In this document: positions 14,426 to 60,344 of the stretch, piece by piece
Layout: the number at the start of each line of letters is the position of its first letter
How positions within the stretch are numbered: position 1 is the first letter of the stretch
Origin: an uncultured Candidatus Saccharibacteria bacterium
GTDB lineage: Bacteria; Patescibacteriota; Minisyncoccia; Sungbacterales; HO2-52-23
Length of the DNA: 64,000 nt
Assembly (NCBI GenBank): GCA_964585475.1
Contig: CAZPDF010000003.1
Coordinates: forward strand, 7,983 to 71,982
Direction of reading: 5' to 3'
Translations under genes and position numbers: made by a program
The notes under the pieces: model-generated
Database searches by the model: none
Seen by the model: only the letters and a program-made list of their open reading frames with translations
What the model was told of the DNA's origin: nothing

Positions 14426-15541
14426 GACATCCAAAAAGCCGTCGAACTTCTCGAGCGAAGCGCGCACGTAGCAGTGATCCTGCCGCCGAATCCGGATTTT
14501 GATACTCTCGCCGCGGCAGAAACCCTGCTTCGGGTGCTGCTCGCGCAAAAAAAGAAGATCGGGCTTATGACCGTCCAGCCCAGAGATCAAACGATTGTGT
14601 CTCTCCCTATTTTAAAAACGCTTCGCGAGAATCCCCTGCTCCCGCGCGAATTTATCGTCTCCCTTGATACTTCACGCTCGCCGGTGGCCGAGATGCGTTA
14701 CGAAAAGAGCGAGAGGGGCATAGACGTTATTTTTTCGCCCCAATCGGAGGAGCTGACCAAAGACGCGGTCTCCTGCAAACCAGGCAAGATGCTATGCGAC
14801 GCCGCGCTTGTACTCGGAGTTCAAGACATAGAATCCCTCAACGGCTCGCTGGGGGTTGAACCGCAATTCTTCAGCGAGACCCCCCTTATAAATATTGACG
14901 TATCCGCCGCCAACCGAAAATATGCGGAAGTGAATCTGGTCGAAGAATCCTATCCGGCAATTTCTCAAATCGTTTATCATCTGGCCTCCGCGCTGGTTGA
15001 CGGCCCCCTGAAGGAAGAGGAGGCAACGCTGGTCTTGGCCGGAATTTTCGATAAAACCGAACAATTTCACTCCTCCAATATGCAGGCCGATACCCTGCTG
15101 GCCGCGTCCGAGCTCGTACGCCTGGGCGCGCGCTACAACGAGGCAACGACTTTGGCCATGGAGAAGGCGCCGTTAGAACTCTTCCAGCTTTGCGGCAGAG
15201 CAGCGGTTCGTTCGAAACTGGACGAAGAAAAAGGAATTCTCTGGTCATTCTTAACCGCCGAAGATTTTACTAAAACCGGGCGAGGGCTTCGTGACGCCTC
15301 GAGCGTAGTTCGGCATCTCGAACGGAACTTCCCGCCGCGGCGCCTGGTTGCCCTTCTTTCGCAGGATCCGGAGAAAAAAGGTGTCGGAGTCACGCTGGCA
15401 GGAGACGCCGAGCTCCTTCGCTCCATACAAGGAACGGAGGCGGGCGAATTTCAAAGCCCGCATCTTAAATTAACCGTCCGGTTCTCTTCGTTCCGCGAGG
15501 GGGAAGAGTTTATTACCTCACTCCTTACCCGCGTTCTTTAA
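14423..15541 (+). CDS. DHH-family phosphoesterase-like protein (NrnA-like, motifs degenerate)
   Basis: Overall DHH/DHHA1 architecture, but the DHH motif is degenerate. The upstream part of the ORF only translates the ATTCGTG repeat, so the start is placed at MDIQKAV. Confidence 0.45.
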   Translation: MDIQKAVELLERSAHVAVILPPNPDFDTLAAAETLLRVLLAQKKKIGLMTVQPRDQTIVSLPILKTLRENPLLPREFIVSLDTSRSPVAEMRYEKSERGIDVIFSPQSEELTKDAVSCKPGKMLCDAALVLGVQDIESLNGSLGVEPQFFSETPLINIDVSAANRKYAEVNLVEESYPAISQIVYHLASALVDGPLKEEEATLVLAGIFDKTEQFHSSNMQADTLLAASELVRLGARYNEATTLAMEKAPLELFQLCGRAAVRSKLDEEKGILWSFLTAEDFTKTGRGLRDASSVVRHLERNFPPRRLVALLSQDPEKKGVGVTLAGDAELLRSIQGTEAGEFQSPHLKLTVRFSSFREGEEFITSLLTRVL

Positions 15542-17303: not shown

Positions 17304-17530
17304 ACTAGTAACTGGTTACTAGTTACTGCCTTCTGGGGCCGTGGGCAATTACTCCGGTTTGGGAACACGGAGGCTAGAATTTCTCCCAGGCACAGTTCAG
17401 TAACTGGTTACTAGTAAACTAGTGACCAACCAGACTGCCCTGGTTTAAAAATCCCCATTAAGGTCTGAGTCCTCACACCTTAATTGCCCACGGCCTCAGC
17501 AGACAACCGGTTACCAGTTACTGGCAACTA
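17303..17530. other. long nested inverted-repeat structure, candidate structured RNA or regulatory palindrome
   Basis: Outer heptamer palindromes (TAGTAACTGGTTACTAGTTACTG at 17305 against CCGGTTACCAGTTACTGG at 17505) and an inner 15-bp perfect inverted repeat (GGCCGTGGGCAATTA at 17337 / TAATTGCCCACGGCC at 17476) enclose about 125 nt. Confidence 0.4.
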
Positions 17531-29055: not shown

Positions 29056-29296
29056 TCTTGCTGTATTTATTCTCCGTTTCTATCAAAAAACAATTTCGCC
29101 CGATCACGGAATTTTAGCCGGTGTTTGGGGAGGAGCACGGTGCCATTTTTTTCCTTCCTGCTCAGAATACGCGGTCGCCGCCATCCGTCAATATGGACTA
29201 ACATGCGGGTCTGTGGTGTCGCTTAAAAGAATTGCGCGCTGTCATCCGTGGAGTGCGGGAGGGTACGACCCCGTAGTCTTAAAACCGAAATCCTAA
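29015..29296 (+). CDS. yidD: membrane protein insertion efficiency factor YidD
   Basis: GGARCHFFPSCSEYA with the conserved cysteines. Lies between rnpA and yidC. Confidence 0.8.
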   Translation: MKNSTKHFPKLLADLAVFILRFYQKTISPDHGILAGVWGGARCHFFPSCSEYAVAAIRQYGLTCGSVVSLKRIARCHPWSAGGYDPVVLKPKS

Positions 29297-29320
29297 ACCC
29301 GAAATTCTAAACCGACCGTA

Positions 29321-29430
29321 GGTCGTCCTGAACGAAGTGAGGTCCCTAAGTCGCCGGAGGCGACCGGGATCCCGGCCGAAGGCCTAGGGAGAACTCGGGG
29401 CTCCTTCGTCGCTTCGCTCCTCAGGACGGC
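29321..29430. repeat. GTCATCCTGAGCG-family palindromic element (RPE-like), copy B, nested in a larger palindrome
   Basis: GTCGTCCTGAACGAAGTGAGG ... CCTTCGTCGCTTCGCTCCTCAGGACGGC. Flanked by inverted CCTAAA/TTTAGG tracts (29290-29475). Confidence 0.6.
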
Positions 29431-29477
29431 GTCCTAAGGGACGTCAGTTTAGGATCTAGTGCTTAGGATTTAGAATT

Positions 29478-30218
29478 TTGAATCCATTCAATTTTGTCTA
29501 CACAGAATTTCTATGGCGCCCGTTATTTAACGGGCTCGTTTGGCTCTATGCGGTTATTCCGCCGCACGATCTTGGCCTGGCCATTGTTATCCTAACGGTC
29601 CTGATTCGGGCTATCCTCACCCCCCTGCTTCTTCGTGCACAGAAATCACAGCGCGACTTTGCGCGCCTTCAGGGCGAGATCAAGCAGATCCAGGAAAAAT
29701 TTAAAGGGCATCGTGATGCTCAGGGAAAAGCAACAATGGAGCTTTACCAGCGTGAAAAGGTAAACCCCTTTTCGGGCTGTCTTATGGTACTTATTCAGGG
29801 CCTCGTGCTCTTTACTCTATTCCCGCTCTTTCGCCAGGCTCTGGACCCGGCCATGCTTGTCTTTCTTTACGCATTTGTGTCAAACCCCGGGCCGATGAAT
29901 ACCATAAGTTTCGGGGTTCTTGATCTTGCCCAAGCTAATCTATATTGGGGGGCGCTCGCGGCGGTAAGCCTCTATTTCCAAACCAAACTCGGCGCTCCGG
30001 CTCTTCCCGCCGCCTCCGGCCCGAACGATTTTTCCCGCATGCTGCAGAAGCAGATGCTCTACATGCTGCCGGTTATGATTTTCTTCTTTTCGATGAGTCT
30101 TCCCGTCGCCATCACGCTTTACTGGACAATTTTAAACATTCTTGGTATCGTGCAGGAGATCCTAGTACGCAAGTTCCAAATTCCAAGCGCCAAAGTACAA
30201 ACAAATTCCAAGACCTAA
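29478..30218 (+). CDS. yidC: membrane protein insertase YidC (short form)
   Basis: Five-transmembrane short YidC pattern. Follows yidD. Confidence 0.85.
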   Translation: MNPFNFVYTEFLWRPLFNGLVWLYAVIPPHDLGLAIVILTVLIRAILTPLLLRAQKSQRDFARLQGEIKQIQEKFKGHRDAQGKATMELYQREKVNPFSGCLMVLIQGLVLFTLFPLFRQALDPAMLVFLYAFVSNPGPMNTISFGVLDLAQANLYWGALAAVSLYFQTKLGAPALPAASGPNDFSRMLQKQMLYMLPVMIFFFSMSLPVAITLYWTILNILGIVQEILVRKFQIPSAKVQTNSKT

Positions 30219-30859: not shown

Positions 30860-32053
30860 TTATTTTAATTTCAAACTCCACAATGTTCCGTCTCTGCGAT
30901 CGACGAACATAAGCCAATCCTTATTTTTAGTTACTGCAAGCTCCGATACGTCAAAATTGCCCTCCTCGAACACCGAAACCACTTCGTTTTTGTCCGGTAC
31001 TATGCGTACGATTCTGTCCGAAGTATTGATTTCCCCGCGCAAATAATCATCCGGCCAGAGTGCCGAGAAGGGAATTTCTTTAGGAACGGCGCAATATATT
31101 TCTTTTGCGTCGGCAAATATACATTTGGAAGCGATAGTTCGAATGCCGTCGAGGGGTGATAACAGCTTACCCGAGGAGTCATATAGCGCAAGATCCGGGT
31201 TTTTCCCGGCCAGGTCGGTTAAGGATACTAAAACTCGTGTCCCGTCATTGGACCAGCGCGACATAAGCCCCCGCAGGGGCCCCACGATTTTTGTGAGCGG
31301 CGTTGTCCGGGTGAACGTGAATAAAAATCCGTCGGCCAGGCCGGAGGGTGCGGTCTCAAGCGCAAATTTGCCTGCGGGTAGCGCGGAAAGCTCACCGTCA
31401 AAAACCGGAAGAGCGGCTATGGCCTGATTGTTTTTTCCGGAGGAAGCGACAATGACTAGTTTCATCCCTTCGCCATCGGTGAGAAGATAGACGGCGGTTT
31501 TTCCATCCGGCGCCCACGCAAAACTTTTTATATCCTGCGGCAGAGTGGCGACGGAGGAAGTTCCTATGTGCAGAAACCCTTTTAGCGTTTCGCCGTCAAG
31601 ATAAAATACTGCGGCGCGATCTCGGGCAGGTGACCAGAGCGCTTCGGTGATTCCTACGATGGTCAGGTTGGATATTTTTTCCTGGGGTTGGCCGTTGGGG
31701 GCGGAGGACAAGAGGTCCCCGCCGTCTTTTTTATAGAAAAGTATTTTGTCCTCTTTGGCGTTGAACGAAGCGCCGATTACCGGAAAATCAGTAAGCCGGA
31801 ACAATTTTCCTTCCAGGGTTTTCGGAATTTCAAATTCTACAGATTCTTCCCCGGCCGGAGAAGTGCCCGGCTCTGGGGCCCGTCCTCCCAAGGGCGAGGG
31901 CAATTTGCCGGCAACGCCACTTTCTTCCTGCGAGCCCCCCCGTTCGGTGGCGGCCGGCAATAAAAATTGATAGGCAAGAAACCCAAGACCCGCAAGAATA
32001 AGAATTCCTACCGCCCCATATATTATTAATTTTTTGCGTTGTAGCATTTCCAT
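30860..32053 (-). CDS. membrane-anchored TolB-like beta-propeller protein
   Basis: N-terminal transmembrane helix followed by WD40/TolB-like repeats (DGKTAVYLLTDGEG, DGTRVLVSLTD). Confidence 0.4.
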   Translation of the reverse strand: MEMLQRKKLIIYGAVGILILAGLGFLAYQFLLPAATERGGSQEESGVAGKLPSPLGGRAPEPGTSPAGEESVEFEIPKTLEGKLFRLTDFPVIGASFNAKEDKILFYKKDGGDLLSSAPNGQPQEKISNLTIVGITEALWSPARDRAAVFYLDGETLKGFLHIGTSSVATLPQDIKSFAWAPDGKTAVYLLTDGEGMKLVIVASSGKNNQAIAALPVFDGELSALPAGKFALETAPSGLADGFLFTFTRTTPLTKIVGPLRGLMSRWSNDGTRVLVSLTDLAGKNPDLALYDSSGKLLSPLDGIRTIASKCIFADAKEIYCAVPKEIPFSALWPDDYLRGEINTSDRIVRIVPDKNEVVSVFEEGNFDVSELAVTKNKDWLMFVDRRDGTLWSLKLK

Positions 32054-32548: not shown

Positions 32549-33801
32549 TGCAGTATTAGGTCTATTATTTTTTCCGCCGGAGGAGCAAAGGAATTATTGC
32601 GCCCGATGCGTAAAGTTACCGAAGTTTTTCTGGCGGGCTGATTTTGGGTATCCACCGTAAGAAGGTGCGCATTTTCCGGAGAGCCGCTGATCTCATTTCC
32701 TCCGACATCCCAGACATAAGTAAGACTTTTTCTAGAGGTTACCGGAAAGAAAAATGGCTCCGCGATAAAATCCACCAGACCCCTTGTATCCGACGCAAAC
32801 GCGAAAATAGCTCGTCGCGTCTCAATGCCGCCAAGAGGCGAGGAACCATATATAACGGCGCGAGGGGTATAGGCGGGAACGAAGATTGTTTTTTCTTTGC
32901 GAATTCGCTTATTTGCGTCTTCAACGGTCAGACGGATAACGTGTGACGCGCCCGGCAAATCGGCCATTTGCACACGGAATATTTGTCTACCTACGCCAGC
33001 AAGCACGGGTTTTTGTTCGTCCAGCCCCCAACGGTAGATGAGAGTTTCCGGGCGCAGCATAACACCGCCCATTACAAATTGCGGAATTGCCGTAATCGCA
33101 ACCACTGATCCTTGCGAAGGCAGGGTCCTGCCTTTGTACCACTTGGGAACGTATGTTTCGGCGGACCACGTAACCGCGAGGTCGGATACGCGGATGGTGA
33201 GCGAGGCAGAATTTATTGTACCGTCCGGCCGCGACACGCGCACGTTCAGGGTTTCGGCTGATCCAACCCCGCCGGCAGTAAGGGCAAAGGTGTGTTTGCC
33301 GGGCCCGGAGAGATCGGAGCGGAAAACGCCGTTTACCGTCCAGGAGAAAGTTGCAAAATTCCTGTCGTAGGTCGGCATTCGCGCTTCAACCGTTATGGTT
33401 TCGCCAGGGGAAGGAGAACTTGGCGTAGCGACCACCAAGAGCGGTTCCTTAAGCTCCGAGAGCACAGAAGGATTAAATACATCCGACGGGACAGGAAAAG
33501 CGCTGGAAGGAACCTGGGGAGAGGTAGTGCCAAAAAGAGCCGAAAAGTCGGGGAGGGTTTGGGCGGACACAGCAAGGGCCACCAGGAGTCCCGCCGCCGC
33601 CAAGGCCGTTATCCACGCCCCAGAAGACCACGGGCTTGCCCGCGGACGAGTGGGTCTTCTGGAGGCGGGATTCCGCCCCTCGGCCAAGCCTGCAGGGCCT
33701 GACCGTAACGCAGGGGCACCACGGGCTTGCCCGAGGGGCTCCATTTTTGAAACCTTACGCATGTTCATATTTATTATACTTCCAAAAAGACCCGGCGTCA
33801 T
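32545..33801 (-). CDS. secreted or membrane-anchored hypothetical protein of the T4SS-like cluster
   Basis: N-terminal hydrophobic helix. Ser/Thr/Val-rich beta-rich sequence. Overlaps the VirB4 stop. Confidence 0.4.
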   Translation of the reverse strand: MTPGLFGSIINMNMRKVSKMEPLGQARGAPALRSGPAGLAEGRNPASRRPTRPRASPWSSGAWITALAAAGLLVALAVSAQTLPDFSALFGTTSPQVPSSAFPVPSDVFNPSVLSELKEPLLVVATPSSPSPGETITVEARMPTYDRNFATFSWTVNGVFRSDLSGPGKHTFALTAGGVGSAETLNVRVSRPDGTINSASLTIRVSDLAVTWSAETYVPKWYKGRTLPSQGSVVAITAIPQFVMGGVMLRPETLIYRWGLDEQKPVLAGVGRQIFRVQMADLPGASHVIRLTVEDANKRIRKEKTIFVPAYTPRAVIYGSSPLGGIETRRAIFAFASDTRGLVDFIAEPFFFPVTSRKSLTYVWDVGGNEISGSPENAHLLTVDTQNQPARKTSVTLRIGRNNSFAPPAEKIIDLILQ

Positions 33802-35633
33802 TAGGCCTTCGCGCCGGCCGCAAATTCCTCTTTGGCCTTTTTAATAAGTAAAAGCTGGGCCGGGTCAGAGGTAATAATCTGGTCTTCGGTGTAGGACCCG
33901 ATTACTTTTATCGCCACGTGCTTCAATCCGGCAAAGAATATTCCTTCCCCCCGCTCTGATTCAAGCAGGAGGAATTTTTCCTCCTCGGTCAGGTTGAAGG
34001 TTTGCATGACGAAATCAATGGTGGCGGGAGACTGCCGAAGAAGCATCTGCATGGAGGAATTGGTGATAATCGGTTTTCCGTAGGGAGAGTTAAAAAAGTC
34101 GCCCACGTCCTGCGTGACCGTGGTGAGCCCGAGATAGTACTTGCGTGCTCTTTTGGCAATGCCGAAAAGAAAAGATGCCCCGTCCTCGTGTTTCATCAAC
34201 CACCAGGCCTCGTCCACCACGAGGATCCTTTTTTTCAGGCGCGTGCGTATCTCGTTCCAAATAAACCGCAAGATAAGGAATATTCCCACCGCCCGCAGTT
34301 CGTCCTCCATGTCTCTTACGGAGAACACCACCAAGCGATTATTCATCTCGATATTGGTCGGCTGGTTGAAGAAGCCGGACCAGGTCCCGGTGGTGTATTT
34401 TTTCAGGCGCATCGCAAGATTTTCTCCGCCGGCGGTTGAGGCCAGAATCAGTTCAAGATCCGATAGGATCGGCGGAGTGATTTTCGAAAAGTCGGATTCA
34501 GGCGTGATGTCCCGCGAGGCGTAGGTTTCAGTAATTGCTTGATCAAGTATGGCATCCTCCTCGGCGGTGATCCCCCCCAGCATAATCCGGAAAAGCCCGA
34601 CCAAGTTTATGATGTTTGATCGGAGAACGTCTGACGGCGATTCATCCTCCCGAGGGACCGGAAGATCAAAAGGGTTTATGTGGTGTTTGGATGTAAGGGA
34701 GATGCCGATGTAGGAGCCGCCGACAACCTGCGCCAGATACTCATATTCTCGCTCGGGATCAATAACGATGACATCCGTATCCCACATAAGAGAGCGGATG
34801 ATTTCGAGCTTCATCAAATAGCTTTTTCCACCGCCGGAAATCCCGAAGATTACGGAATTGGCGTTGGGCAACGAGAATCGGTCAAAAAGTATCAAGCTGT
34901 TATTGTGGCGATTGATTCCGTAGAGAATGCCTTTATTTGAAGTAAGGTCAAACGACACAAACGGGAAAGTTGACGAAACGGGTGAAGAGTTGAGGTAGGT
35001 GTTGATTCCGAGTTTGTCGATGTTTAACGGGAGGACGGACTGGAAGCCCTCGGTCTGTTGGAAGAGGGCTGGCTTGGTATAGACCAGGCGCGACTCAAAA
35101 AGGGATTTAATTTCCGATTCGGTTTTATTTAGTTCCTGCTCCGAATAGCCGTAGATCGTAATATATAGGCCGAAGTTAAAAATTCTCTCAGTGGCCTGCT
35201 GGAGTTTGTCGCGGAGCTCCTCAAGGTCCTGGTGGGCGGTGTCCAGTATGGGGTCGCGGACGAGGCCCTTCTCCTCGCGCGCCGCAATCTGGGAACCCAC
35301 CTGCGCGACTTTACGGCGGAGCGTCTTTAGCATTGATCCGGTATCCACCGGATGGATGAACATAGAGACGTCGAATATTTTATCCAGATTTATAACGGGG
35401 CTGAACCAGGCCGTATGGAGGTAGCGCGGATAGGCGAAGATGAAAATGGTTCTGGCAAGTTTAGCTCCGAGGCGAATAAACGTCGGGTTGACTTCAAGCG
35501 CAGAGGGGGAGAGAACGTCTTTTAACGCAAGTTCGCCGGCCCGGTATATTTCTTCCGGGAAAACAGCAAAAATCTCCGATTCCGGATCTTTTTTAGTTTT
35601 AGTTCCAAAGAGTGAAACCACGAATATGTGCAC
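33801..35633 (-). CDS. VirB4/TrbE/CagE-family T4SS ATPase, C-terminal ATPase portion
   Basis: Walker A GISGGGKS and Walker B ILVVDEAWW. VirB4-type C-terminal domain. Begins with GTG, in frame with the upstream N-terminal ORF. Confidence 0.85.
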   Translation of the reverse strand: MHIFVVSLFGTKTKKDPESEIFAVFPEEIYRAGELALKDVLSPSALEVNPTFIRLGAKLARTIFIFAYPRYLHTAWFSPVINLDKIFDVSMFIHPVDTGSMLKTLRRKVAQVGSQIAAREEKGLVRDPILDTAHQDLEELRDKLQQATERIFNFGLYITIYGYSEQELNKTESEIKSLFESRLVYTKPALFQQTEGFQSVLPLNIDKLGINTYLNSSPVSSTFPFVSFDLTSNKGILYGINRHNNSLILFDRFSLPNANSVIFGISGGGKSYLMKLEIIRSLMWDTDVIVIDPEREYEYLAQVVGGSYIGISLTSKHHINPFDLPVPREDESPSDVLRSNIINLVGLFRIMLGGITAEEDAILDQAITETYASRDITPESDFSKITPPILSDLELILASTAGGENLAMRLKKYTTGTWSGFFNQPTNIEMNNRLVVFSVRDMEDELRAVGIFLILRFIWNEIRTRLKKRILVVDEAWWLMKHEDGASFLFGIAKRARKYYLGLTTVTQDVGDFFNSPYGKPIITNSSMQMLLRQSPATIDFVMQTFNLTEEEKFLLLESERGEGIFFAGLKHVAIKVIGSYTEDQIITSDPAQLLLIKKAKEEFAAGAKA

Positions 35634-47034: not shown

Positions 47035-47099
47035 AAAACCAGAATAGCATGTTTTGGGGCCCGCCCCGTTAGAAGCAAGACGCCAGAGGCGTCTGCCAA

Positions 47100-47185
47100 T
47101 CCCGCTTTCGGCGGGACTGGGCTTCTAACGGGGTGTGGATAGCCCGGCTTGACTAGGGGGGTTTTCGGAGGTAGGGTGGAGGCGA
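47100..47185. other. compact structured element bounded by CCCCGTTAGAAGC / GCTTCTAACGGGG inverted repeats
   Basis: A 13-bp perfect outer stem encloses two hairpins (AGACGCC-aga-GGCGTCT and TCCCGC-tttcg-GCGGGA). A second nested palindrome follows at 47225-47270: CCCTAAG...CCGGGATCCCGG...CTTAGGG. Confidence 0.4.
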
Positions 47186-53894: not shown

Positions 53895-54035
53895 GAGATC
53901 ATTCATCCAGCCCTCTTAGCTGTACGTAATTTATTCTGCCCCTAAGTACGCCTTAATATAATTATCTGGATAAATTATATCTCGGCGGCTTAGAGGGCTG
54001 GATGAATGATGTATCGCGTTTTAATTCCTTCTCTT
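53895..54035. promoter_or_regulatory. long hairpin in the pnp 5' leader (20-bp perfect inverted repeat)
   Basis: CATTCATCCAGCCCTCTTAGC ... GCTTAGAGGGCTGGATGAATG, arms about 75 nt apart. Immediately upstream of the pnp start. Confidence 0.45.
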
Positions 54036-56269: not shown

Positions 56270-56575
56270 TTTACAATCCGCCCGGCAGGATTCGAACCCC
56301 GCACAGCAGCAAGACTGTATGCGGGGCAGGCCTGCGATTAACTCGACTGCGGCATTTACCCCGTACTAAATTTATCCGGTTCGTCCCCCGAGACTCGAAC
56401 TCGGAACCGCCGCCTTAAGAGGGAGCTGCTCTACCAATTGAGCTAGGGGCGGACACAGAATCGGGACTCTACCGCTGAGCTATGCGCGGGTTTTGAAATT
56501 TTTCGCGCCCATCAGGACTCGAACCCCAAACCTCTTGGTCCGAAGCCAAGCGCTCTGTCTTCACCCTCCCACCTT
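56270..56575 (-). other. tRNA-like units of uncertain integrity (possible Lys-CTT-like unit, truncated Arg-like duplicate, 5' partial units)
   Basis: GGATTCGAACC / GGACTCGAACC T-loop complements and canonical D-arms (TAGCTCAATTGGTAGAGC) are present. The acceptor and anticodon stems of these units do not pair cleanly when folded by eye. Confidence 0.3.
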
Positions 56576-56578
56576 TCT

Positions 56579-56652
56579 CGTCCCTGCGAGGACTCGAACC
56601 CCGAACCTCTTGCTTCGAAGGCAAGCGCTCTGTCCAGTTGAGCTACAGGGAC
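56579..56652 (-). tRNA. tRNA-Arg (anticodon TCG)
   Basis: Minus-strand fold: GTCCCTG/CAGGGAC acceptor, GCTC/GAGC D-stem, CTTGC-CTTCGAA-GCAAG anticodon arm, CGGGG-TTCGAGT-CCTCG T-arm. Confidence 0.7.
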
Positions 56653-56708
56653 AAAGGTGGGAGGGCAAGTCGAGCTATGGGCGCATCGAAGAAAAAATAT
56701 CATAAAAG

Positions 56709-59390: not shown

Positions 59391-59452
59391 CTTAAGCTAG
59401 TATATATAATAGTATTTGCGAGTCAATTGTTGCGAGAGATCAGTCTTTATGC

Positions 59453-59485
59453 GGGCCGTAGTATAGTGGTAGTACGCGGGGCTCT
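59453..59485 (+). pseudogene. truncated tRNA-Pro-like 5' fragment
   Basis: CGGGCCGTAGTATAGTGGTAGTACGCGGGG parallels the 5' half of the adjacent tRNA-Pro, but the anticodon loop is collapsed to 4 nt and there is no T-arm. Confidence 0.3.
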
Positions 59486-59500
59486 CCCCGTTAGAAATAT

Positions 59501-59571
59501 CGGGCCATAGTGTAGCGGTAGCACGAGTCCTTCGGGAGGATTTAGCCCCGGTTCGAATCCGGGTGGCCCGA
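59501..59571 (+). tRNA. tRNA-Pro (anticodon CGG)
   Basis: CGGGCCA/TGGCCCG acceptor, AGTCC-TTCGGGA-GGATT anticodon arm with G37, CCCGG-TTCGAAT-CCGGG T-arm. Flanked by perfect 13-bp inverted repeats TCCCCGTTAGAAAT / ATTTCTAACGGGG. Confidence 0.75.
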
Positions 59572-59729
59572 GGAAAAATTTCTAACGGGGCAAGGGACTC
59601 CGTAGACTGGGGCGAAAAGATCGATGATCTTTTCGCGGGCCGACCACCAAGTTAAGTGAGCTTTGCGAGCGTTTTATGAAGGTCGGCCCGGGAATTTGCG
59701 AGGAGCAAATTGATTCCCAGCGGCCCGAA

Positions 59730-60344
59730 ATGGAAAATAAAAATATGCAGGCCATAGCAGATTTTGTTTATGAGAGTGGAATTTTGAGCAAAACCCCGCG
59801 CTCCGGTTTATGGTTTTTGGGAACAGGCAGTCAGAGTGTGGCCGAGCATACGCTCCGAACTGCTTTTATCGGTTTTGCGCTTTCTTTTCTGACCCCGAAA
59901 GCAAATAGGGACAAGGTGATTGTTATGTGCCTAATGCATGACCTTGGTGAGGGACGAACCTCCGATCTTAACTACGTTCATCAAAAATATGGCCGTCTGG
60001 CCGAAGCGCAGGCCATTGCCGACATAGCAAAAAGCGTTCCTTTTGGAAGCGGCATCAAGAAAATATATGAAGAAGTGGAAGAGAAAAAGACCATCGAGGC
60101 CAGGTTGGTAAAAGACGCTGATCAGCTTGAGTGGCTCGCAACGCTTCGCGAGGAAGAGACTAAAGGGAACACTAAGGCGCGCGTGTGGGCAAAAATTGCC
60201 CAGAAGCGCCTAAAAACTTCGGCCGGGAAGAGACTCGGGAAAGCGCTTTTGGCACTCCACCCGGACCACTGGTGGTTTGATGAAAAGGATAGATGGTTTG
60301 TAGACCGCAAGGTCGTAGATAAAAAGTGGAAAAGAAGAAAATAA
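59730..60344 (+). CDS. HD-domain phosphohydrolase (YfbR-like)
   Basis: H...HD motif (VAEHTLRTA ... LMHDLGE). Confidence 0.6.
   Translation: MENKNMQAIADFVYESGILSKTPRSGLWFLGTGSQSVAEHTLRTAFIGFALSFLTPKANRDKVIVMCLMHDLGEGRTSDLNYVHQKYGRLAEAQAIADIAKSVPFGSGIKKIYEEVEEKKTIEARLVKDADQLEWLATLREEETKGNTKARVWAKIAQKRLKTSAGKRLGKALLALHPDHWWFDEKDRWFVDRKVVDKKWKRRK

Follow-up and report, generated by a model that had tools for sequence, protein, structure and literature searches.

The window analysed here, 64,000 nucleotides of contig CAZPDF010000003.1 from an uncultured bacterium, contains at 59486–59590 a tRNA-Pro(CGG) gene enclosed by a perfect pair of 13-nt inverted repeats. This cassette sits in the anticodon loop of another tRNA gene: the half tRNA upstream of it and the pieces downstream are a resident tRNA-Pro that it has split, a relation missed by the original prediction, which had been made from the letters of the window. 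The reading we favour, to which we give a probability of roughly 0.8, is that the cassette is a small non-autonomous element resembling the miniature inverted-repeat transposable elements called MITEs, that its copy of tRNA-Pro lies inside the resident gene and replaces it, and that a two-hairpin unit at 47064–47133 belongs to the same family.

The two arms of the cassette are complementary over 13 of 13 positions and leave spacers of 2 nt on the 5' side and 6 nt on the 3' side of the inner tRNA-Pro. This inner gene, which has C1-G72 and A73, is 86% identical to the cargo tRNA of a cassette found elsewhere (L206; the L numbers designate fetched loci) and is presumably the working gene. That perfect inverted repeats bracket the tRNA at 59501–59571 had been predicted and is confirmed, with the one correction that the right arm starts at 59578 and had been placed one base early, at 59577. 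The exact 11-mer core of the repeat occurs four times in the window, forming two inverted pairs. Across 100 dinucleotide-preserving shuffles of the window the paired pattern gave 0.00 matches, and when up to one mismatch was allowed the window had 6 matches compared with 1.54 expected, a count that none of the 100 shuffles reached. The possibility that the 11-mer is common by composition, raised with the prediction as the way in which it might fail, is ruled against by the shuffles.

The outer tRNA-Pro retains U8 and a D arm (GUAU/GUAC) between the acceptor and anticodon-stem strands of its 5' part. Its strand CUCCG (59598–59602) pairs with the CGGGG anticodon-stem strand (59477–59481), CUGGG (59607–59611) pairs with CCCAG (59716–59720) in the T stem, and CGGCCCG-A (59721–59728) pairs with the 5' acceptor strand; across the insertions every stem is paired, the acceptor over 7 bp, the D stem, and the anticodon and T stems over 5 bp each. 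Two interruptions separate the parts of the gene, namely the cassette plus CAAG (59486–59594) in the anticodon loop and 98 nt (59612–59709) in the T loop. When both were deleted in silico, ARAGORN at its default threshold called a tRNA in 92 of 400 junction variants, compared with 0 of 12,000 constructs in which the pieces had been shuffled. The 3' part, which shares 76% identity with the inner tRNA's own 3' end, was required for this call. The junction CUC/GGGA gives the outer gene the anticodon CGG, which is that of the inner gene.

The half tRNA upstream of the cassette had been described as a truncated duplicate of the inner gene. Its presence holds (59452–59485) and its description as a duplicate does not, because the D stem and the anticodon stem of the outer and inner tRNA-Pro differ through compensated changes; the outer tRNA-Pro is a gene in its own right, not copied from the inner one. 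The direct repeats said to flank the whole unit are real: GCGGGCCG occurs at 59451 and 59635, within a 15-nt direct repeat (59444–59458 and 59628–59642) that is 87% identical. The T-loop insertion contains a partial copy of the gene's own 5' flank and acceptor strand (59628–59642), and may be the remains of an older layer or a partial duplication. It also includes an 11-bp perfect hairpin (59612–59636) and an acceptor-like hairpin, CGGGCCGACC...GGTCGGCCCG, and the sequence TTTGCGAG is present in three copies at this locus, one of them 5' of the gene at 59415.

Table 1. Positions, in window coordinates, of the tRNA-Pro cassette, the split outer gene and the related features.
Feature	Coordinates	Strand	Remarks
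Left terminal inverted repeat	59486..59498	+	CCCCGTTAGAAAT; 13-nt arm, perfect pairing
Inner (cargo) tRNA-Pro(CGG), intact	59501..59571	+	ARAGORN; Rfam RF00005, 61 bits
Right terminal inverted repeat	59578..59590	+	ATTTCTAACGGGG; 13/13 complementary to left arm
CAAG next to right repeat	59591..59594	+	Cassette-associated flank typical of most tRNA nests
Outer tRNA-Pro, 5' part	59452..59485	+	Read from sequence; fold pairs with 59598-59602 and 59721-59727
Outer 5' part, acceptor strand	59452-59458	+	CGGGCCG
Outer 5' part, anticodon-stem strand and loop remnant	59477-59481; 59482-59485	+	CGGGG; CTCT
Outer tRNA-Pro, middle	59595..59611	+	Loop remnant GGA, CTCCG anticodon stem, TAGA variable region, CTGGG T stem
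Second insertion, T loop of outer tRNA-Pro	59612..59709	+	Three hairpins; inverted repeats I3 and I1, direct repeats D1 and D3
Outer tRNA-Pro, 3' part	59710..59728	+	TTGATT T-loop remnant, CCCAG T stem, CGGCCCG acceptor, discriminator A
Second family copy, two-hairpin unit	47064..47133	.	Perfect 13-bp stem CCCCGTTAGAAGC / GCTTCTAACGGGG
tRNA-Arg(TCG) nest, different repeat	56504..56684	-	Inner gene 56579-56652 in the D loop of outer tRNA-Arg(TCG)

The second copy in the window is built on the same 11-mer core, its arms lying at 47064–47076 and 47121–47133, and it encloses two GC-rich hairpins without tRNA cargo. The two-hairpin structure with a shared core had been predicted and stands; the coordinates first assigned to it (47100–47185) were some 40–50 nt off. 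No Rfam family matched this unit. Its architecture (AAG-hairpin-CTGCC-hairpin-GG) and its junction bases are common to L036, L048 and L123, with which the unit forms a small subfamily and also shares compensated hairpin changes; L036, L048 and L123 between them represent both Patescibacteria and Planctomycetota.

The pair forms the terminal inverted repeats of an element family that is dispersed across phyla. An exact scan for CCCCGTTAGAA-N(41–101)-TTCTAACGGGG, with one genome per species, gave at least 120 genome loci compared with about 4 by chance (our own estimate). Represented among the genome matches listed are many Patescibacteria lineages, Planctomycetota, Deltaproteobacteria, Omnitrophota, Thermodesulfovibrionia, Nitrospirae, KSB1 and others. 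What the arms enclose is unrelated from one locus to the next. Family-wide, the arm consensus extends outwards (gTtnA followed by CCCCGTTAGAA-R-t). The elements are 30–140 bp long, with a tRNA, hairpins or unrelated sequence as cargo and no transposase gene inside. Many genomes have several copies inside 8 kb, down to minimal 32-bp hairpins, and 41 loci contain more than two arm matches.

The family is mobile, as judged from its flank duplications, its unrelated contexts and its in-frame copies within genes. An exact 4-bp direct flank repeat of consensus TNNA was found at 64 of the 123 copies among the genome matches listed, and clustering of the open reading frames (ORFs) around copies revealed no shared neighbour gene. 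Twelve of 256 distinct copies lie within long ORFs, all of them read in the frame PVR...SNGV; all twelve are stop-free, with a length that becomes divisible by 3 when 4 is added, meaning that these copies stay in the mRNA and are translated. The net insertion in such copies is always the element plus 4 bp. Examples are L018 2807–2886, L035 2206–2237 and L036 1304–1368, to which nine others can be added, and one of the host genes is an exonuclease III homologue. A scan of a viral collection gave only 2 matches, and phages are therefore not an obvious vector. Where a processing or mobility module had been proposed, mobility is upheld by the flank duplications, the unrelated cargo, the lack of a shared gene and the in-frame copies; an extended stem for RNase processing finds no support, the in-gene copies being translated and the anticodon loop of most nests not being rebuildable. 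At L205 7377–7659 (= L247 4575–4857) a 283-bp cassette carries an ORF for an 88-aa GIY-YIG nuclease, the last codons of which enter the right repeat. As a candidate for a linked enzyme this nuclease was set aside; it is probably just another cargo, as four further small GIY-YIG genes among the fetched loci lack bracketing repeats.

As a general rule, the copies that carry a tRNA sit in a tRNA of the same identity. Among the genome matches listed, tRNA cargo was found in one of 123 copies, L091, where a tRNA-Ala(CGC) lies in the anticodon loop of an outer tRNA-Ala. A scan of metagenomes that required the arm pair and a T-loop motif between the arms gave at least 120 loci, and ARAGORN detected a tRNA in 45 of the 120 matches listed. 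Ala-CGC was the most frequent cargo, the others being Pro-UGG, Pro-CGG, Leu-CAG, Val-CAC/GAC/UAC, Thr-UGU/CGU, Gly-CCC and Ala-UGC. Deletion of the cassette recovered an outer tRNA in 28 of 42 distinct cases among these metagenome matches, and nearly all the remaining cases also have anticodon-stem flanks when inspected by eye. In 26 of the 28 recovered cases the outer tRNA best matched tRNAs of the identity of the cargo. The insertion point falls at positions 35/36 for Pro, Leu, Val and Thr and at 37/38 for Ala. Wherever the outer anticodon is still readable it is the same as the inner one, and inner and outer tRNAs are always on the same strand. At L204, L206, L141 and L138 the nests are three deep, each layer with its own repeat and the older layers more decayed. 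The nests are flanked by a host-like 4-mer on the 5' side and by a recurring YRRR 4-mer on the 3' side (CAAG, CGAG, CAGG, CGGG, TGAA, TAAA). When L213 and L248 were compared, the outer halves were 89–95% identical and the flanks 78%. A second hairpin family, CCCCGATAG...CTACGGGG, always followed by CAGG (L243, L229, L150), is inserted in the 5' halves of outer tRNAs, already dead, with the D arm on one side and the anticodon stem on the other.

Inner tRNAs are 85–100% identical between loci whose outer tRNAs are 54–82% identical, and in four such pairs the surrounding kilobases do not align; for L204 and L243 the inner tRNAs are 100% identical and the outer ones 69%. Near-identical cassettes sit in outer genes whose anticodon stems differ. 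Homologous recombination through the outer halves therefore lacks support as a means of spread, and we rejected it on this ground and because the similarity ends at the cassette. These comparisons show horizontal movement of the cassette between unrelated hosts.

The window contains another nest, in which a tRNA-Arg(TCG) is bracketed by a different repeat, a perfect 13-bp pair CCCTCCCACCTTT / AAAGGTGGGAGGG at 56665–56653 and 56576–56564. The outer tRNA-Arg(TCG) spans 56684–56504 and has one G-G mismatch in its T stem; once the insert was deleted, ARAGORN recovered it as tRNA-Arg(TCG). The flanks of this nest, CTTG...TGAA, are the same as those of the Pro(UGG) nests of the other family despite the different repeat. 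In a Sungiibacteriota genome (L001) and a metagenome contig (L126) the syntenic tRNA-Arg(TCG) is uninterrupted, and its acceptor stems, GCGCCUA and GCGCCCA, match the outer gene of the window. The outer tRNA-Arg is therefore the vertically inherited resident and the inner one the newcomer. It had also been suggested that the tRNA-Pro locus be compared across relatives, and here L001 and L126 both keep a degraded 5' tRNA-Pro half directly upstream of tRNA-Pro(CGG); as for the bracketing repeats, the half in L001 is followed by a decayed arm, CCCCCCGCCAAAATTT.

Near the tRNA-Arg nest, a tRNA-Lys(CTT) at 56378–56452 (- strand) has several stem mismatches and scores just 44.7 bits against Rfam. 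An orphan 5' tRNA half (about 56490–56455, - strand) precedes it, and it is followed by GGATAAATTTAGTACGGGG and about 60 nt that are conserved in the Sungiibacteriota genome too (window 56359–56490; L001 18760–18960). In L001 an intact tRNA-Lys is enclosed by an inverted repeat of which the 19-mer GGATAAATTTAGTACGGGG forms one arm, and more tRNA 5' fragments lie upstream. Neither the repeat of the tRNA-Arg locus nor that of the tRNA-Lys locus turned up in the other loci fetched. At L126 820–1200 (- strand), a tRNA-Ala(CGC) locus, a 5' tRNA-Ala fragment is interrupted by a hairpin after the D-loop GG and two extra 3' tRNA-Ala fragments lie downstream, stacked remnants that resemble the Pro locus.

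In the explanation that we favour, an element with the ends CCCCGTTAGAA(R)(Y) and a length of 30–140 bp is spread over many uncultivated bacterial phyla. The copy at 59486–59590, with a complete tRNA-Pro(CGG) as its sole cargo, would have landed in the anticodon loop of a previous tRNA-Pro(CGG); this resident, split as described and bearing the further T-loop insertion, would now be dead, and the cargo tRNA, transcribed from the host locus, would have taken over its job. The element would be moved by a transposase acting in trans, and the flanking tetranucleotides may travel with it, just as piggyBac carries the donor TTAA as overhangs. Such travelling tetranucleotides would account for the constant gain of 4 bp, though not for the match between the anticodons of cargo and target. 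Repeated invasions of the working copy would build up layers in the manner of a Russian doll, and the replacement of the resident gene would make a cassette hard to lose. We also entertain, more tentatively and without expecting it on balance to prove right, a self-propagating form of this replacement, in which the cassette would find a gene of the same anticodon by its sequence, insert in the middle of the anticodon, kill the resident, substitute its own cargo and lock in the host until later invaders repeat the process. The guide may be, for example, the cargo or the anticodon-loop sequence.

Several observations weigh against a MITE-like element that transposes in the usual way. Neither copy in the window has a flank duplication: the tRNA-Pro cassette is flanked by CTCT (5') and CAAG (3'), and the two-hairpin unit by CCCG and TGTG. 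In the metagenome scan a duplication was present at none of 41 tRNA-carrying copies, compared with 49 of 65 non-tRNA copies, so that the nests may come about in some way other than by ordinary transposition. Within one subfamily, independent copies also have the same flanking tetranucleotide, which does not sit well with a fresh duplication at every target. No transposase was found near the copies by neighbour-ORF clustering or by global ORF clustering, none in NCBIfam and Pfam scans of the 30 largest of the 56 window ORFs, and no autonomous element among repeat pairs 350–5000 bp apart in 1.75 Mb of loci. The outer tRNAs are better preserved than would be expected of old pseudogenes, which calls for very recent invasions or for constraint; we attribute this preservation to frequent re-invasion, the immediate outer layer having been functional until recently, and some constraint on the outer halves is possible. 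Lastly, the model leaves unexplained how each cassette acquires a tRNA of a given anticodon.

Other explanations were weighed against the same observations. The asymmetric flanks of the nests, with a host-like 4-mer on one side, a conserved YRRR (CAAG, CAGG, TGAA) on the other and no duplication, would suit movement as single-stranded DNA by an HUH (Y1) enzyme, in the manner of RAYT-REP/REPIN or of the TnpA-IS200/IS605 PATEs, where an element ending in its own tetranucleotide is inserted 3' of a target tetranucleotide without target duplication. Hairpin-forming elements placed in loops of DNA that can itself fold as hairpins when single-stranded would fit as well, and so would the CCCCGATAG...CTACGGGG family with its invariable CAGG. 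However, 52–75% of the non-tRNA copies have exact 4-bp direct flank repeats, the gain at each in-ORF copy is exactly 4 bp more than the element, the two arms form one stem together instead of a hairpin each, and no Y1 transposase gene was seen near the copies; we consider this mechanism unlikely. Chance, with the 11-mer compositional and the flanking half tRNA a local duplication scar, has in its favour only that the window holds just two copies; with 0.00 paired matches expected from the shuffles, at least 240 loci elsewhere compared with about 4, and 0 of 12,000 in the shuffled-exon control, this has practically no chance of being correct.

Two further accounts place the event at the level of RNA. 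If the repeat were an RNA processing or splicing helix, the locus would be transcribed as a whole, an endonuclease (of the RNase III or splicing type) would free the inner pre-tRNA and the outer halves would be ligated, so that both tRNAs would be functional and the insert would be a bacterial tRNA intron that itself contains a tRNA. All outer stems are indeed intact, the repeat extends the outer anticodon stem to a helix of about 23 bp, insertions are confined to loops (anticodon, D or T), the outer halves of L213 and L248 are better conserved than the DNA next to them, and inner and outer genes always share a strand. But the predicted fold lacks a bulge-helix-bulge, its unpaired stretches (A, and CA) both being on the 3' strand, and for the Ala nests and most of those with Pro(UGG) a 7-nt loop with the right anticodon cannot be rebuilt at any junction. 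The in-ORF copies, kept in frame and stop-free with a length plus 4 divisible by 3, are not removed from RNA; moreover the outer gene of the window also holds the 98-nt T-loop insertion, older layers decay (L141, L001, L126) and the Rfam intron families are unmatched. We regard this account as quite improbable. The cassette transcript could instead have been ligated into a tRNA cleaved in its loop, by an anticodon nuclease and an RtcB-type ligase, then reverse-transcribed and recombined through homology to the host tRNA, which would account for the missing duplication, the small loop indels, the loop-only positions, the shared strand and the outer arms being the host's own. No reverse transcriptase or ligase is linked to the elements, though; the anticodon matching is explained no better than by the other models, and the non-tRNA members behave as DNA transposons with flank duplications, which leaves this route a very slim prospect. 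The non-autonomous DNA element set out above remains the reading that we prefer.

The habit of tRNA-carrying cassettes with terminal repeats to replace a resident of the same anticodon is widespread and apparently undescribed. If the reading is right, tiny horizontally moving cassettes overwrite tRNA genes across a large part of the bacterial tree, including the isoacceptors CGG, CGC, CAG, CAC, CGU, CCC and UGG, and this would bear on tRNA phylogenies and on tRNA-based inferences about taxonomy and codon usage in these phyla. Dead outer genes will escape annotation pipelines, which will also miscall the repeat copies inside genes. Insertion that is matched by anticodon and leaves no flank duplication suggests a way of targeting not yet described, and the family is a marker, common to several phyla, of gene flow between bacteria of groundwater and sediment. 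Should replacement also prove to be self-propagating, mobile elements would have a new principle of targeting, and tRNA genes a new route of horizontal turnover in Patescibacteria and other uncultivated phyla.

The gene content of the window is bacterial (PNPase, PcrA/UvrD, CCA-adding enzyme, DnaA, DnaN, UvrB, Pol I, MurE and a PilB-type ATPase), and CCA is not encoded in its tRNA genes. The aminotransferase that flanks the tRNA locus has its closest relatives at 45–48% identity, Candidatus Sungiibacteriota (Patescibacteria, or candidate phyla radiation, CPR) among them; a protein search of the genome collection gave no related loci, and exact look-ups of this aminotransferase gave no contig. 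Downstream of the nest, the longest ORF for an HD-domain protein (59676–60344) begins within the dead tRNA remnant, and the ATG at 59731 is probably its true start. In the Sungiibacteriota relative (L001 8950–9800) an HNH-repeat ORF, homing-endonuclease-like, lies between tRNA-Pro(CGG) and tRNA-Ala(CGC), where the window has the HD-domain gene. Elsewhere in the window, a 23-nt inverted repeat, 96% complementary and with arms 67 nt apart, lies just 5' of the PNPase gene (53898–54010) and could be a leader hairpin of pnp. Inverted and direct repeats cluster at 17304–17522, between the pilB-like gene and ruvB, and at 29277–29478, 3' of dnaA/dnaN and adjoining yidC; the latter may be origin-related. 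A VirB4-like conjugal ATPase is encoded at 33801–35633. The ARAGORN "intron" calls at 15074–15431 and 31745–31897 are false positives within coding sequence.

Our literature search turned up neither the repeat nor nested tRNA genes, which does not prove that no description exists. Several known systems share part of the picture. With archaeal disrupted tRNA genes (multiple-intron, split and permuted), to which the likeness is superficial, it has in common the interruption of anticodon, D and T loops and insert ends that form a long helix by the anticodon stem; here, in contrast, the host is bacterial, there is no 3-4-3 bulge-helix-bulge, the insert holds a complete tRNA of the same anticodon, and the outer anticodon is usually not restorable. 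Restoration of a 7-nt anticodon loop is possible in the window (CUC+GGGA giving CGG) and impossible for the Ala and most Pro(UGG) nests. A bulge-helix-bulge intron was rejected, since the two 3-nt bulges on opposite strands around a 4-bp helix are absent from the predicted fold, and so was a group I intron, since the insert has 105 nt (more than about 200 nt being expected) and Rfam gives tRNA only, even at E values up to 10. With gathering as well as permissive thresholds, Rfam gave nothing but tRNAs for the window and the two sites. In an integron attC site, R'' (RYYYAAC) stands 5' and R' (GTTRRRY) 3' of one hairpin; here the boxes are reversed, with GTTAGAA on the 5' arm and TTCTAAC on the 3' arm, and 4-bp flank repeats are present, so attC was rejected as well.

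The elements behave like MITEs. Both window copies have terminal inverted repeats pairing over 13 of 13 bp, the elements are small and without an internal transposase gene, and their copies, two of them in the window, are dispersed at unrelated sites. A target-site duplication is seen at 64 of 123 copies among the genome matches listed, and at neither window copy nor the 41 tRNA-carrying ones; a cognate autonomous element was not seen among pairs 350–5000 bp apart in 1.75 Mb of loci. Like bacterial MITEs and Rickettsia palindromic elements (RPEs), the elements are short (30–140 bp) and non-coding, have hairpin-folding ends and several copies per genome, and lack a transposase. Like RPEs in particular, the copies within protein genes stay in frame and are translated (here as PVR...SNGV); RPEs reportedly occur in RNA genes too. 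Unlike either group, the present family has an 11–13-bp end common to distant phyla around an unrelated interior, and some of its members carry a complete tRNA gene and occur almost exclusively within the cognate tRNA gene. REP/REPIN elements or IS200/IS605 PATEs would insert next to a fixed tetranucleotide without target duplication; the nests agree with this, having no duplication and a conserved YRRR flank, and most non-tRNA copies, with exact 4-bp duplications, do not.

The ends of piggyBac elements, which are DDE transposons, begin with a run of C (CCCTT, CCCTC, CCCAT), their flank is TTAA with the variants TAAA and TCAA, and IS1380 is a prokaryotic relative (PMC10813416). The present elements likewise have CCCC ends, a 4-bp T..A flank repeat (TNNA) and a net gain of the element plus 4 bp, but the middle two flank bases are free, no transposase is linked, and many copies have two different flanking tetranucleotides that seem to travel along. 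Finally, tRNA-targeting islands and phages and the eukaryotic Dada transposons, as these are said to behave, also land in a small RNA gene, bring a sequence that keeps its function and leave displaced, stacked tRNA fragments behind. Those elements, however, bring only the 3' part of the target, form a hybrid gene by site-specific recombination, are kilobases long and have an integrase, whereas the cassette described here, of about 105 bp, brings a whole tRNA and splits its target in the anticodon loop, with both halves left flanking it.

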